Below are positions 59,062-64,000 of a stretch of DNA of 64,000 nucleotides, in pieces (positions within the stretch are counted from its first letter, which is position 1; each line of letters starts with the position of its first letter). The notes under the pieces are model-generated. The model did not search any database. It had not been told where the DNA came from and saw only the letters and a list, made by a program, of their open reading frames with translations. Source of the stretch: Acidimicrobiia bacterium (GTDB lineage Bacteria; Actinomycetota; Acidimicrobiia; Spongiisociales; ZC4RG35); contig DATBIX010000029.1 of NCBI GenBank assembly GCA_036556665.1, positions 6,429 to 70,428 on the forward strand, read 5' to 3'. The position numbers and the translations under genes are program-made.

Positions 59062-59862
59062 ATGCCGATCGCCCTCGTCACCGGGCCAGGTTCCGGTATT
59101 GGAAGGGCCACCGCCCTGGAACTGGCGATCGAGGGTTATCACGTGGTGGCGGCCGGGCGATCCCCTGAGAGAATCGAGCTCGTGATCGGCGCCATCGAAA
59201 GGTCTGGTGGCACGGCCGAGTTCCTCGGGCTCGATCTCTCGTCGCTTGCATCAGTTCGGTCCGCCGTCGCTCGATTCCTCGACTCGGGGCGGAACCTCGA
59301 CGTGCTGGTCAACAACGCCGGGATCGGGATCAACCGACGGGGTTTGACCGACGACGGTTTCGAGGTGCATTTCGGGATCAACCACCTCGGGCACCACCTC
59401 CTCACCACCGGACTGAGCGCAGCCTTCCACCCCGGGACCAGAGTCGTGTCCCTGGCCAGCGCGGTCCACTTCCGTGCCAGGGGAATCGACTTCGATGCGG
59501 TGAGAAGGCCGATCCGAGGGATCGGTTACGACGCCTACGCCGTCTCCAAGCTGGCCAATGTCCTCTTCATCAGGGAACTGGGCCGTAGGCACCCCGAATG
59601 GGATTCATACGCGGTGCACCCAGGTCTGGTCGACACCCCCCTCATTCCCCGCTGGGTGAGGCTGTTCACCCGATCCTCGATGCTCACCCCCGAGCAGGGG
59701 GCGGACACCGTGGTGTGGTGCGCCACCTCCGATGAAGCGAGCGGCCAGACCGGCCACTACTACCAACGCCGCCAGGTCACGACACCCTCCTTGCCCGCCC
59801 AGGACGACCAACTCGCCCTCCAGCTCTGGGAGCGATCCGAGCAGTGGTGCCTGCAGCCGTGA
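59062..59862 (+). CDS. SDR family oxidoreductase (retinol dehydrogenase-like)
   Basis: VTGPGSGIG, NNAG, NHLGH, YAVSK, VHPG. Confidence 0.9.
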   Translation: MPIALVTGPGSGIGRATALELAIEGYHVVAAGRSPERIELVIGAIERSGGTAEFLGLDLSSLASVRSAVARFLDSGRNLDVLVNNAGIGINRRGLTDDGFEVHFGINHLGHHLLTTGLSAAFHPGTRVVSLASAVHFRARGIDFDAVRRPIRGIGYDAYAVSKLANVLFIRELGRRHPEWDSYAVHPGLVDTPLIPRWVRLFTRSSMLTPEQGADTVVWCATSDEASGQTGHYYQRRQVTTPSLPAQDDQLALQLWERSEQWCLQP

Positions 59863-59893
59863 CACACGCCATGCACGCCGACAATTAGCGTCA

Positions 59894-60982
59894 ATGGTGA
59901 TGGACCAGGACCTGTACTACGGAAGCTATCTCCAGCTGGACAAGCTGCTCGACGCACAGGAACTGGAGAGCGCCCGGAAGGGGCGAGCGGTCCACGACGA
60001 GATGCTCTTCATCGTCGTTCATCAGGCGTACGAGCTCTGGTTCAAGCAGATCCTCTGGGAGATCGACGAGGTGCGACGCATCTTCGGCCAGGAGACGGTC
60101 GACGACGCCGACATGGGCACCGTCGTCTCCCTGCTCCGCCGCATCACCGAGATCCAGAAGCTGCTCATCCAGCAGGTCTCGGTGCTGGAGACCATGACCC
60201 CGCTCGACTTCCTCGACTTCAGGGACTATCTGTTCCCCGCCTCCGGGTTCCAATCGGCCCAGTTCCGGCTGGTCGAGAACAGGCTGGGGCTGAGGGCGCA
60301 GGACCGGATGAAGCTGGGGGGCGCCCCCTACACCGCCCGGTTCAGCGCCGAGGACCGGGCCAGGGTGGTGGAGACCGAGTCCGGGCCGTCGCTATTCGAT
60401 CTCGTCGAGCGATGGCTGGAGCGAACCCCCTTCCTCGACCACGGGGACTTCAGCTTCCGGGAGGCTTTCCAGCAAGCGGTCAAGACCAGACTCGAAGCCG
60501 ATCGGGAGGTGGTGCGGACCAATCCACGTCTCACCGAGGAGGAGCGGGAGGCGCAGCTCAAGGAGTTCGTGAGCACGATGGAGCAATACGAGGCCATCTT
60601 CGACCCCGCCCTCCACGGCGAGCAGCAGGCGGCCGGGAGACGCCGTCTCTCCCATCGCGCCTTCCAGGCGGCACTGTTCATCACTCTGTACCGCGACCAG
60701 CCGGCTCTTCAGGAGCCGTTCCGGCTGCTCGAGCTTCTCATGGACGTCGACGAGGGCTTCACCTCATGGCGCTACCGGCATGCCCAGATGGCGCTGCGCA
60801 TGATCGGGCGGAGGATTGGCACCGGGGGCTCGGCAGGCGCCAAGTACCTGGAGAGGTCGGCGGAGCGAAGCCGCATCTTCGGCGACCTGTACGACCTCTC
60901 GACCTTCCTCATCCCGAGGGCCGACCGGCCCCCTCTGCCCCAGGGCATCGTCGAGTCGATGCGATTCAAGTACGAGGGATGA
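59894..60982 (+). CDS. kynA: tryptophan 2,3-dioxygenase, long (eukaryote-like) form
   Basis: YGSYLQL, HDEMLFIVVHQAYELWFKQ, SGFQS, WRYRH, GTGGSAG. Confidence 0.92.
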   Translation: MVMDQDLYYGSYLQLDKLLDAQELESARKGRAVHDEMLFIVVHQAYELWFKQILWEIDEVRRIFGQETVDDADMGTVVSLLRRITEIQKLLIQQVSVLETMTPLDFLDFRDYLFPASGFQSAQFRLVENRLGLRAQDRMKLGGAPYTARFSAEDRARVVETESGPSLFDLVERWLERTPFLDHGDFSFREAFQQAVKTRLEADREVVRTNPRLTEEEREAQLKEFVSTMEQYEAIFDPALHGEQQAAGRRRLSHRAFQAALFITLYRDQPALQEPFRLLELLMDVDEGFTSWRYRHAQMALRMIGRRIGTGGSAGAKYLERSAERSRIFGDLYDLSTFLIPRADRPPLPQGIVESMRFKYEG

Positions 60983-62112
60983 ACCTCAAAGAGGGCTTCT
61001 CCCGATTCCTTGCCGCGAGACCGGGCCGTCTGCACTTCGCGGCTCATTCGCATCATCCCTGGCCAGACGTCAGCTTCGGAGCCCAGCAGCAGGCCTGGCT
61101 GGATGCGACCGAGCGAGTTGACGACAAGTGGGACCACGTGCTCGGGACGGTGGTCCCCTCGGCTGCTTCGGGTGTGGCACGGATCTTGGGCCTGTCCGAT
61201 CCGGGCACCATCACCTTCGGGCCGAACACCCACGGTTTCCTCATGCGGATCTTCTCCTGTCTCGAGCCCCCGGTGCGGGTGCTCACCAGCGACGCCGAGT
61301 TCCACTCCTTCACCAGGCAGTCGAGGCGATGGGAGGAGGCCGGTCTCGCCATCGTCGACCGGATCCAATCCGAGCCGTTCGACACCTTCGCCGAGCGATT
61401 CACCCGGGAAGCGAGGGCGGGCGTCCACGACCTGATCTACCTGAGCCAGGTGTTCTACGACTCGGGCTTCGTGGTACCCGACCTGGACCGTGTGGTGTCG
61501 TCGGCCCCGGAGGACCGGACCTTCATCGTGATCGACGGCTATCACGGCTTCATGGCCATACCCACCCACCTCGGTGCCGTGCAGGATCGGGTCTTCTACC
61601 TGGCGGGCGGGTACAAGTACGCCATGGCCGGCGAGGGTGCCTGTTTCCTCCATTGCCCGCCCGGATACGGTCCGCGACCGATCGACACCGGCTGGTATGC
61701 CGGATTCGGGCAGTTGGAGACAGGGGTCGGAGCGGAGATCTCATACCGGGAGGACGGGAGCCGGTTCGCCGGCGCCACCTATGACCCATCCGGGGTCTAC
61801 CGGTTGGATGCCGTGCTCCGCTGGCTCGACGAGGTGGGAATGACCGTGCCGGCGATCCACGCCCATGCCGTCTCGCTGCAGGAGCGGTTCTTGGCCGCCG
61901 ACGCGATGCCGGGCGAGCTGCTCCCACCGGCCCGACACGACCGAGGCAATTTCATCACCTTCCGCTCCGATACGGCAGGCGACACCTACCGCGCCCTCCA
62001 CGACCGGGGGGTGATCACCGACTACCGGGGCGACCGTCTCCGCTTCGGCTTCGGGATATACCAGGACGAGGGAGACGTCGAGCGGCTGCTCGCCATCCTG
62101 GCCGGTATCTGA
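60979..62112 (+). CDS. PLP-dependent class V enzyme, kynureninase/PvdN-like (AAHSHH type)
   Basis: HFAAHSHH, IDGYH, GGYKYAMAGEG, GATYDPS; ATGA overlap with TDO. Confidence 0.75.
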   Translation: MNLKEGFSRFLAARPGRLHFAAHSHHPWPDVSFGAQQQAWLDATERVDDKWDHVLGTVVPSAASGVARILGLSDPGTITFGPNTHGFLMRIFSCLEPPVRVLTSDAEFHSFTRQSRRWEEAGLAIVDRIQSEPFDTFAERFTREARAGVHDLIYLSQVFYDSGFVVPDLDRVVSSAPEDRTFIVIDGYHGFMAIPTHLGAVQDRVFYLAGGYKYAMAGEGACFLHCPPGYGPRPIDTGWYAGFGQLETGVGAEISYREDGSRFAGATYDPSGVYRLDAVLRWLDEVGMTVPAIHAHAVSLQERFLAADAMPGELLPPARHDRGNFITFRSDTAGDTYRALHDRGVITDYRGDRLRFGFGIYQDEGDVERLLAILAGI

Positions 62113-62142
62113 CCGGCCAGGATGGGTGAGGGAGCCAGTTAC

Positions 62143-62235
62143 TCAGTCCTCGTCGTTGCGGTTGATCAGCCGCTTGGGCAGAACCACGAATGCAACGAAC
62201 ATCGCAATGAAAGCGCCTATCGCCACGAACTCCAT
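62143..62235 (-). CDS. small single-TM protein (30 aa) downstream of amt
   Basis: MEFVAIGAFIAMFVAFVVLPKRLINRNDED*; RBS AAGGAGAGG; absent from supplied ORF track (below length cut-off). Confidence 0.65.
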   Translation of the reverse strand: MEFVAIGAFIAMFVAFVVLPKRLINRNDED

Positions 62236-62256
62236 GACCGCCTCTCCTTTCCTTGC

Positions 62257-63606
62257 CTATCGCGGGCTCTCGGACAACTCCAAGACATATCCGGGCTGGG
62301 TGAACTCGGTGGCGTCGACACCGGCCTCCTCGTCCTCGGCGGAGACCCTGAGGCCGATGGTGCGCTTGATGAAGCCGAACACCACCACCGAGGCAAGACC
62401 GGTCCAGGCCACTACGGTGACCATCGAGACCAGTTGGGCGACGAAGGTGTCGGTCCCACCGGCGATCAGACCGGCGACATCGAGGTACTCACCGTTGGCG
62501 AAGATCCCCAACGCCAGCAGCCCCCAGAGTCCCCCGAGGCCATGGCAGGCGATGGCCCACACCGGATCGTCGACCTTCAGCCTCTTCTCGATGAATGCTG
62601 CGCCGAAGATGACCAGTGCCCCGCCGATCCCACCTATGACCACTGCGGCCCAGTAATCCACGAAGGCACAGGGGGCCGTGATGGCGACCAGACCGCCGAT
62701 GATCCCGGAGCAGGTGGCTGCGATGTCCGCCTTGCCGGTTCTCACCAACTGGATGTAGTAGGCAACCAGGCCAGCGGCGATGCCGGCCAGGAAGGTGTTG
62801 ACCGCGATCACCGCGATCTGGGGGTCGTTTCCGTTGAGCGTGGAGCCGGGGTTGAAGCCGAACCAGCCGACGAAGAGGATCATCGTGCCCAGGACGACGT
62901 ATCCCATGTTGTGACCGGGGATGGATCGAGGCTTGCCATCCGGGTCGAACTTGTCCCTGCGGGGGCCCACCATCCTGGCTCCCACGAAGGCGGCCACCCC
63001 ACCCACCGCGTGCACCACGCCGGAACCGGCGAAGTCCCATGCACCCAACTCGGCCAGCCATCCACCGCCCCACACCCAATGGCCGTAGATCGGGTAGATG
63101 AGGGCTGAGATCAGGAACGAGTACGCCATGTACGAGTCGAGCCGGGTCCGCTCGGCGAGCGCGCCGGAGACGATGGTGGCGGCAGTGGCGGCGAACACCA
63201 TCTGGAAGAACCAGAGCAGGGCGGTGTCGGCCGTCCCGTAGTCGCCGGAGAGGAAGAAGCCCTCGGTGCCGAAGAACTGGTTGCCCGGTCCGAACATGAG
63301 GGCGAAACCGAAGGCCCAGAAGGCGAGCCCGCACATGCAGAAGTCCATCAGGTTCTTCATGAACACGGAGCCGGCGTTCCGGGATCGGGTCGAACCGGCC
63401 TCGAGCAGGGCGAAACCGGCCTGCATGAAGAAGACGAGGACCGCGGCGACCATCACCCAGACGAAGTCGACCGCCGAGGCAACACTCTCGACCGTGGGGC
63501 CCTCCTGTCCCAGAGCCATTCCGCCCGGCACCATCCCGATCACCAACAGCACCAACGCCACCCAGAGCCGCCGCTGCCGCACCCAACGCCTCAAAACACC
63601 CGCCAT
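62257..63606 (-). CDS. amtB: ammonium transporter
   Basis: FFMQAGF, FQMVFAATAATIVSGA, DFAGSGVVH, GWFGFN, DDP...H (twin His). Confidence 0.95.
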   Translation of the reverse strand: MAGVLRRWVRQRRLWVALVLLVIGMVPGGMALGQEGPTVESVASAVDFVWVMVAAVLVFFMQAGFALLEAGSTRSRNAGSVFMKNLMDFCMCGLAFWAFGFALMFGPGNQFFGTEGFFLSGDYGTADTALLWFFQMVFAATAATIVSGALAERTRLDSYMAYSFLISALIYPIYGHWVWGGGWLAELGAWDFAGSGVVHAVGGVAAFVGARMVGPRRDKFDPDGKPRSIPGHNMGYVVLGTMILFVGWFGFNPGSTLNGNDPQIAVIAVNTFLAGIAAGLVAYYIQLVRTGKADIAATCSGIIGGLVAITAPCAFVDYWAAVVIGGIGGALVIFGAAFIEKRLKVDDPVWAIACHGLGGLWGLLALGIFANGEYLDVAGLIAGGTDTFVAQLVSMVTVVAWTGLASVVVFGFIKRTIGLRVSAEDEEAGVDATEFTQPGYVLELSESPR

Positions 63607-63673
63607 ACCTTCGCAGTCTCCTGAATCGCGTTGCCTGGTACCTCCAGGATGGGCAAGAGGTTTCCGCGCGAAT

Positions 63674-63700
63674 GTTTCGAGGCTGTTTCGCGTTAGTTGC
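63674..63700 (-). promoter_or_regulatory. GlnR-like box upstream of amt
   Basis: Minus strand GCAAC-n6-GAAAC-n6-GAAAC, plus another GAAAC at 63664-63660. Confidence 0.6.
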
Positions 63701-63714
63701 GAGTTGACGATCGG

Positions 63715-64000
63715 TCAGGAACCGGGGACGACGGCGACACAGACCAGTTCGACGAGTGCCCGCTCGTCGAAGAGCCGCTCGACTCCGATCAGCGCCATGG
63801 CTGGGAAGTGCCGTCCGAACACGGCGCGATAGGCCGCACCGATCGGGCCCAGGTTGGCCCGATAACCATCGACGTCGGTGGTGTAGATGGTCATCGAGAT
63901 CAGGTCCGACGGCTCCCCACCCGCATTCCCGATCACACGCGCCACCGAGCGGCAGGCCTGGGCGAACTGGTCGACCAGGCTTGGGTCGATGGTGAGATCC
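63715..64000 (-). CDS. RidA/YjgF family protein (C-terminal part; starts outside window)
   Basis: DQFAQAC, TIYTTD, FPAMALIGV, LVELVCVA. Confidence 0.85.
   Translation of the reverse strand, partial: DLTIDPSLVDQFAQACRSVARVIGNAGGEPSDLISMTIYTTDVDGYRANLGPIGAAYRAVFGRHFPAMALIGVERLFDERALVELVCVAVVPGS

Follow-up and report, generated by a model that had tools for sequence, protein, structure and literature searches.

GlnK, a soluble trimer of a 112-amino-acid (aa) protein, senses 2-oxoglutarate and ATP/ADP and plugs the pores of Amt ammonium transporters from the cytoplasm. Other transporters have small membrane proteins as partners: KdpF is a 29-aa single-helix subunit of the KdpFABC K+ pump, for which a stabilising and not a catalytic role has been proposed, and AcrZ (acting on AcrB), MgtS and MgtR (on MgtA), SgrT (on PtsG), MntS (on MntP) and CydX are proteins of less than 50 aa, mostly single-pass helices, that are induced by the stress their target answers and work by helix-helix contact. 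For Amt, the only described small-protein regulator that we found in the literature searched is sP36 of Methanosarcina mazei, a 61-aa protein that is cytoplasmic under nitrogen limitation, moves to the membrane on an ammonium upshift and mediates the binding of GlnK1 to AmtB1 (PMC10714827). In this work, we analyzed a 30-codon small open reading frame (sORF) that follows an amt gene in a 64,000-nucleotide (nt) stretch of contig DATBIX010000029.1 from an Acidimicrobiia bacterium; the whole stretch is called the window hereafter. The sORF is a real, conserved gene under purifying selection, and its product is a single-helix membrane microprotein whose presumed partner is the Amt encoded next to it.

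The sORF occupies positions 62143 to 62235 of the minus strand, stop codon included (ATG at 62235-62233, stop at 62145-62143), and encodes MEFVAIGAFIAMFVAFVVLPKRLINRNDED. It is preceded in the same operon by amt (62257-63606, minus strand), which encodes an Amt-family ammonium transporter of 449 aa, and exactly 21 nt, GCAAGGAAAGGAGAGGCGGTC (62256-62236, minus strand), separate the amt TAG (62259-62257) from the sORF ATG. This spacer harbors a Shine-Dalgarno (SD) site, GGAAAGGAGAGG (62241-62252, minus strand), in which AAGGAGAGG covers 62249-62241 and the core GGAGAGG ends 5 nt 5' of the ATG. An SD-like core was present 4-18 nt 5' of the start in 57 of 64 distinct copies of the family. The peptide consists of E2, an unbroken apolar stretch from F3 to L19, P20, and then the segments KRLINR and NDED; read from the sequence, F3-L19 is a single apolar membrane-spanning helix with E2 before it and K21/R22 after it. 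The neighbouring gene is a full-length Amt-family member that scored above both curated cut-offs, namely TIGR00836 (438 bits, cut-off 343, 3e-131) and PF00909 (414 bits, cut-off 23.2, 6e-124, residues 49-440). The first-pass annotation of this DNA had reported a peptide that starts 21 nt past the end of amt behind a ribosome-binding site, a single hydrophobic helix in it with a basic-then-acidic tail, and no glnK adjoining amt; each of these descriptions proved accurate, and a search of all frames of the 64-kb window for P-II (glnK/glnB) gave no homologue, glnD not having been searched for.

The amt-sORF interval holds no hairpin comparable to the one that follows the sORF, which places the sORF inside the amt transcription unit. 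The hairpin after the sORF (62093-62125, assigned to neither strand) begins 18 nt 3' of the sORF stop and is a perfect 14-bp GC-rich structure, CCAUCCUGGCCGGU-CAGAU-ACCGGCCAGGAUGG, with a fold energy of -39.5 kcal/mol (z -4.9; none of 200 shuffles was as stable). It is probably a bidirectional terminator, has no U-tract on either strand, and contains the stop codon (62110-62112) of a convergent kynureninase-like gene. No sigma-70-like promoter was detected by a scan for consensus promoters and terminators, which also passed over the U-tract-less hairpin. Hairpins were also present 3' of the sORF in four other loci (L001, L005, L143 and L146; such working labels are used below where a locus has to be singled out).

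We collected relatives of the window Amt, one genome per species, to give a sample of 80 loci. Small ORFs of recognisably the same sequence lay 3' of amt in Actinomycetota (L001, MELVAIGAFIAMFIVFAVLPKRLINRHEED; L005) and in Chloroflexota (L002, L003, L007, L010 and L021). L007 comes from a Thermoflexus metagenome-assembled genome. A peptide profile made from the amt-downstream ORFs was run on the window and the 80 Amt loci, which together have 19,307 frames of 20 aa or more, and yielded 17 matches with E-values from 2e-17 to 5e-8, the next best being 0.26. These matches were spread over 13 loci and the window, all in the orientation of amt and close to its 3' or 5' end; the profile added copies upstream of amt in L006, L008 and L009 (two) and copies further downstream in L015, L016 and L024 (three). 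Between the window sORF and that of L001 there were 13 synonymous and 6 non-synonymous changes, giving a ratio of non-synonymous to synonymous rates (dN/dS) of 0.07, compared to 1.4-1.5 in the other two frames. Across 61 distinct copies, differences in the 20-codon ungapped core fell at codon positions 1, 2 and 3 in the proportion 669:206:1810, and the codon changes family-wide were 1518 synonymous versus 712 non-synonymous. The first-pass annotation had proposed conservation and dN/dS in relatives as a check, and the outcome, conservation in two phyla and a low ratio against L001, was in its favour. Its description of the peptide as unlisted stood only in part: the exact 30-aa product has already been called in soil and rhizosphere metagenomes at JGI, though only as 'hypothetical protein'. 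All eight soil contigs examined encoded the identical peptide in the same synteny, with a RidA-like gene, amt, the sORF, and convergent kynureninase-like and tryptophan 2,3-dioxygenase (TDO) genes. Soil metatranscriptome contigs of 384 and 395 nt from two runs spanned 61888/61916 to 62282/62299, covering the sORF and the 3' end of amt, and further pieces of amt came from three soil metatranscriptome runs; the contigs are unstranded and may stem from transcription running on from the convergent gene, so that they attest to RNA across the sORF but not to its translation.

The peptide belongs to a family that is undescribed. Among 5.8 billion proteins, a profile search recovered 333 clusters; the top 120 matched at E <=1e-8, were 27-60 aa long and had no Pfam domain. 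When 1.84 billion representatives were scanned exhaustively with HMMER, 235 clusters passed E <=1e-3, and among the best 150 of these representatives nearly all were 27-80 aa long. The window peptide had no Pfam or NCBIfam family at E <=1, 45 family members had no match to either at E <=0.1 beyond scattered chance hits, no relative of the family was found in the PDB, and the literature searched held no paper on the family or on a membrane small protein paired with Amt. Carriers were soil and rhizosphere Acidimicrobiia, Dehalococcoidia and marine SAR202-like Chloroflexota. The family consensus reads M-E-x3-A-x2-A-F-x-G-L-F-x2-W-V-V-L-P-[KRTS], followed by a basic stretch and sometimes by an acidic tail, and the highest 18-residue Kyte-Doolittle mean in relatives was 2.5-2.8. 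P20 was invariant in 263 members, with F9 and W/F16 conserved in 262 each, F13 in 258 and V17 in 253. On a helical wheel, one half holds the best-conserved positions (5, 8, 9, 12, 13, 16, 17 and 20) and the opposite half the most variable ones (4, 7, 11 and 14); the conservation moment of the helix is modest (0.13). Such one-sidedness is what a helix-helix contact predicts, and we regard it as suggestive only of a helix packed against a protein partner.

The family resembles the described systems in layout and differs from each of them. Like KdpF, the peptide has about 30 aa and one membrane helix, and its gene shares an operon with that of its presumed transporter. Unlike KdpF, the family has no sequence match to KdpF models; its neighbours in the window are amt and the kynureninase-like gene and not kdpFABC; its presumed partner is an Amt channel and not a P-type ATPase; the sORF lies after or before amt, whereas KdpF comes first in the kdp operon; and it can be multi-copy with its own promoter-like motifs. 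With the enterobacterial modulators it shares a small single-pass membrane protein, but those are mostly unlinked to the gene of their target and narrowly distributed, whereas the peptide is syntenic with its presumed target in two phyla. The likeness to sP36 would be that of a nitrogen-regulon small protein acting on Amt, which for the peptide is presumed; sP36 is a soluble bridge between GlnK1 and AmtB1, whereas the peptide is a bacterial integral helix with no P-II gene adjacent in 13 of 14 loci, a distinction drawn from the description of sP36 and not from its sequence. The sORF shares its genomic place, immediately after amt in the same operon, with glnK, which holds that place in most other sampled Amt loci; unlike GlnK, the peptide has only 30 aa, no P-II domain (PF00543) and no obvious ligand-binding capacity, and it coexists with P-II in L008 and L148. 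In view of the negative sequence tests, the peptide is a member of neither KdpF nor the other small transporter-partner families. It represents an undescribed microprotein family attached to a transporter family that has no membrane-embedded small partner in the literature searched.

The sORF was tied to a particular group of Amts. In all loci examined, 72 of the 72 copies with amt in reach were on the amt strand, 64 of them within 700 nt and 45 within 200 nt; more than 60 distinct amt-sORF pairs are thus available. This co-orientation and adjacency held across Acidimicrobiia and Chloroflexota, the exceptions being orphan copies of the sORF and one relative without it. In a neighbour-joining tree the sORF-linked Amts formed nearly one group, in which an archaeal Amt with glnK (L004) and L022 were the exceptions; in marine loci a second amt, of a sister type, lies 3' of the sORF. 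The window Amt is 56-61% identical to Chloroflexota Amts and about 49% identical to other actinobacterial Amts, suggesting that amt and the sORF moved together. We reached four further distinct Actinomycetota loci through Amt homologues 63-70% identical to that of the window, with flanking genes unrelated to those of the window; three of the four had amt, an interval of 55-90 nt, the sORF and then a hairpin, and a P-II gene was called in none. P-II was in reach in only 1 of 14 sORF loci, compared to 50 of the 67 Amt loci that have no sORF (Fisher p 3e-6, without correction for phylogeny).

We further analyzed the regions upstream of these genes and found motifs of the kind bound by nitrogen regulators. 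Upstream of the window amt lies GCAAC-n6-GAAAC-n6-GAAAC-n9-GAAAC (63700-63660, minus strand), 55-95 nt 5' of the amt ATG, a set of direct repeats that would be the nitrogen-control site of the amt-sORF operon. The sole exact GAAAC-n6-GAAAC in the 64 kb lies within these repeats, and GCAAC-n6-GAAAC-n6-GAAAC (63674-63700) had four matches at no more than one mismatch in the 64 kb, against 1.0 expected; 2 of 100 shuffles reached four. Boxes of the form xxAAC with an 11-nt period were also present upstream of amt in L001, L141, L143, L144 and L146. Nearly every Chloroflexota copy was preceded, about 45-100 nt upstream, by TGTAACAAAGATTTAACA-N14-16-TGTAACA, and [GT]TAAC-n6-[GT]T[AT]AC occurred about 90 nt 5' of the ATG in 56 of 61 distinct Chloroflexota copies, compared to 0.08 in shuffles. 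Four to five such boxes at 11-nt spacing were seen in L006, L008 and L009. Actinobacterial GlnR boxes have a 5+6+5 layout, reported as gTnAc-n6-GaAAc and as t/gTAAC-n6-Gc/aAAC (PMC10704036). The same layout, 5-nt xTnAC / GnAAC boxes with 6-nt spacers, was found in the window and in the Chloroflexota copies. The window operon is therefore probably GlnR-controlled, and the Chloroflexota motif looks like the binding site of a GlnR-type regulator; we met no earlier description of such a site in Chloroflexota, though no search was aimed at it. By these motifs the peptide would belong to the nitrogen regulon, through co-transcription with amt in Actinomycetota and through a promoter-like motif of its own in Chloroflexota. 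We consider it very probable, judging from the sequences, that the sORF encodes a real translated microprotein of the nitrogen regulon.

In Chloroflexota-type contigs reached from the peptide side, the order was amt, 2-4 tandem sORF paralogues, glnA, glnA and gdh. Tandem arrays of 2-4 sORFs between amt and glnA were seen in L024 (5668-7255), L081 (4001-4809), L083 (4001-5063) and L084 (3722-4093), with the upstream motif, the SD site and the ORF repeated in each unit. L085 (1861-3573) has a transposase-like gene (DUF772) between amt and the sORF and is otherwise like L084 and L086, with the motif upstream of its sORF kept. In L148 the order was glutamate-synthase genes, a gene for a 220-aa OmpR-family regulator, two sORFs, two amt genes, P-II and GSIII. 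The gene immediately 5' of the sORF pair encodes this same regulator in L148 (4178-4840) and in L008 (1059-1733). The regulator matches Trans_reg_C strongly but Response_reg and GlnR_1st only below threshold, and it is a candidate for binding the GlnR-box-like motifs. Orphan copies, with no amt within 2-3.5 kb, stood near acyl-CoA-dehydrogenase-like genes (L102, L110, L112 and L126) and Amidohydro_2 genes (L129, L134 and L136); these may be extra members of the same nitrogen regulon.

Our best explanation, to which we give an even chance of being right, is that the peptide is a nitrogen-regulated single-pass accessory subunit of a particular Amt clade; the topology, a physical association with Amt and the direction in which the peptide acts are what we infer. 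The sORF would be made from the same transcript as an Amt of this one clade, and by the positive-inside rule the peptide would insert N-out/C-in, with E2 outside and K21/R22 inside. The helix F3-L19 would then pack on the lipid-exposed surface of the cognate Amt trimer through a face made of A/G5, A8, F9, L/M12, F13, W/F16, V17 and the invariant P20, and the peptide may stabilise or tune Amt when nitrogen is scarce. Several observations weigh against this proposal. An Acidimicrobiia Amt 70% identical to that of the window (L141/L142) has no sORF, so the transporter does not strictly need the peptide, and some close relatives have either lost it or can do without it; in L141 (5410-5520) and L142 a terminator hairpin with a U-tract lies directly 3' of amt. 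In L008 and L148 one cluster holds both the sORF and a P-II gene. The Chloroflexota arrays, at 2-4 copies per amt, outnumber the amt genes and each copy has its own promoter-like motif, a pattern more in keeping with a demand for large amounts of the peptide, or with a broader role, than with a 1:1 subunit. Of 46 marine loci obtained by scanning metagenome contigs for the peptide, only 22 had amt, typically in the order amt, sORF, amt, glnA; at least 13 had ample flanks and no amt, and marine orphan copies with the same upstream motif stood about 350 nt upstream of acyl-CoA-dehydrogenase-like or Amidohydro_2 genes. No natural fusion of Amt and peptide was found among the best 150 of the 235 representative clusters, and the metatranscriptome contigs, unstranded and possibly read through from the kynureninase-like gene, may include DNA. 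The first-pass annotation had cast the peptide as a new small-protein modulator of Amt in the position of glnK. This idea survives insofar as the peptide is undescribed, lies in the amt transcription unit in the window lineage, and is tied to a near-monophyletic Amt group at a place where most other Amt loci carry glnK; a strict replacement of glnK is contradicted by the P-II genes of L008 and L148, by the copy number of the Chloroflexota arrays, and by the marine copies, about half of which have no amt.

A possible alternative, which we hold only tentatively, is that the sORF encodes a small membrane protein induced by nitrogen starvation whose target is not Amt, or not only Amt, and that its adjacency to amt reflects shared regulation and not binding. 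The target might, for example, be a GlnR-like regulator or another sensor, on which the peptide would act by feedback or tethering as MgrB does on PhoQ, or glutamine synthetase, or the peptide might have a general role in the membrane. This would suit the Chloroflexota copies, 56 of 61 with a GlnR-box-like motif of their own and some arranged in tandem arrays of 2-4, as well as the copies that lie between amt and glnA/gdh or directly after the GlnR-like Trans_reg_C gene (L148 and L008) and the orphans that share the motif upstream of acyl-CoA-dehydrogenase-like and amidohydrolase genes. The Actinomycetota argue otherwise, as amt is the only constant neighbour there, at a spacing of 21-90 nt, the sORF is followed by a hairpin with neither a regulator gene nor glnA close by, and the amt-sORF pair recurs among unrelated flanking genes. 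No homologue of the regulator was found in the 64-kb window, and the family tracks one Amt clade, the other sampled Amt loci, including other actinobacterial ones, being without the sORF.

We consider it unlikely that the peptide and Amt together form a GlnK-independent control module, either with the peptide gating or destabilising Amt after an ammonium upshift, as a membrane-embedded stand-in for the GlnK plug, or with the pair serving as the missing ammonium sensor that signals to the orphan GlnR-type regulator encoded beside the sORFs of L148 and L008. Very improbable, in our judgement, is a type-I-toxin-like or otherwise membrane-perturbing hydrophobic peptide that lies near amt by chance. 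Toxins of the Ibs, Ldr and TisB types are short, with one hydrophobic helix and a charged C-terminal tail, and occur in tandem arrays, and the peptide shares this build and, in some genomes, the tandem multi-copy arrays. It differs in its stable synteny with amt and nitrogen genes across two phyla, its strong and apparently accessible SD site, its co-orientation and co-transcription with a housekeeping transporter, and its upstream motifs of the nitrogen-regulator type; neither an antisense RNA feature nor an Rfam family was found in the window region and 13 loci, and there was no match in IMG/VR viral contigs (PADLOC and plasmid collections were not searched). We give equally little credence to a cis-acting leader ORF, whose translation would control a downstream amt or glnA while the peptide itself had no function. 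The sORF does lie 60-200 nt upstream of amt in marine SAR202-like loci and in L006, L008, L009 and L148; in the window and in other Actinomycetota, in contrast, it is the last gene before a hairpin and a convergent gene, leaving nothing for it to regulate in cis, and its protein sequence has been kept in both phyla, most changes being synonymous and the conservation lying inside the membrane helix. Finally, a chance ORF or a twelfth Amt helix made by read-through of the TAG is extremely improbable, for, although the GC-rich window is full of long spurious ORFs and the 21-nt spacer keeps its sORF in the amt frame with no further stop, the conservation, the selection and the sORF's own SD site stand against both, and we rejected read-through because the in-frame relation is not kept elsewhere (L001 is out of frame with a 49-nt gap, L144 is in another frame, an overlapping one, and a stop codon intervenes in L146), and a helix after the cytoplasmic Amt C-terminus would also put K21/R22 outside, against the positive-inside rule.

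The neighbouring genes and the rarer forms of the family were also recorded. The convergent kynureninase-like gene (60982-62112; PF22580/PF00266) is preceded by the TDO gene, and the two overlap by their start and stop codons (59732-62112, plus strand), so that a kynurenine-pathway pair converges on amt; the hairpin at 62093-62125 is common to the convergent amt-sORF and TDO-kynureninase units. The mechanically called TDO ORF has 416 aa compared to the 362-aa product called in metagenomes, and the true TDO start is therefore probably further downstream. A known RNA element, such as a glutamine riboswitch or the Downstream-peptide motif, between amt and the sORF or 5' of the tandem copies was rejected: at the gathering threshold Rfam matched nothing in 13 loci, and positions 61500-64000 of the window gave only noise. 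Some longer predicted proteins (96-384 aa) have the family helix at the N-terminus followed by unrelated sequence: L007 (1248-2399; 384 aa, no Pfam match), P0275 (200 aa, HAD-like by eye), P0307 (125 aa) and P0375. They are either real membrane-anchored fusions or artefacts of gene calling or assembly; as singletons that may be gene-call artefacts, they were set aside as uninformative Rosetta-stone fusions. The scan of IMG/VR viral contigs found no copy of the family. A family copy in L135 (3501-3578; MITLLAAGAFVGLFGMWVVIPKFLKK) lies on a contig of 37% GC beside RNA-ligase and RlaP-like genes; this contig may be a phage, the sole phage-like locus among those examined.

By common account amtB and glnK rank among the most conserved gene couples of prokaryotes; one group of Amts instead has, in the same nitrogen clusters, the gene of a membrane microprotein of 27-40 aa. 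What standard annotation overlooks is evident from this family, which at 50% identity numbers at least 235 clusters and lacks a name, a structure and any Pfam or NCBIfam model. From the GlnR-box-like motif and the linked GlnR-like regulator gene, it seems that a nitrogen regulon of the GlnR type extends into Chloroflexota. Should the GlnK-independent module be true, Acidimicrobiia and Chloroflexota would share an undescribed nitrogen-sensing route. Binding to Amt, if it occurs, would make the peptide the first small-protein partner of the Amt/Rh family that is integral to the membrane, and the peptide would then provide a handle on the control of ammonium uptake in the organisms that carry it, which belong to lineages that are abundant yet poorly cultured.

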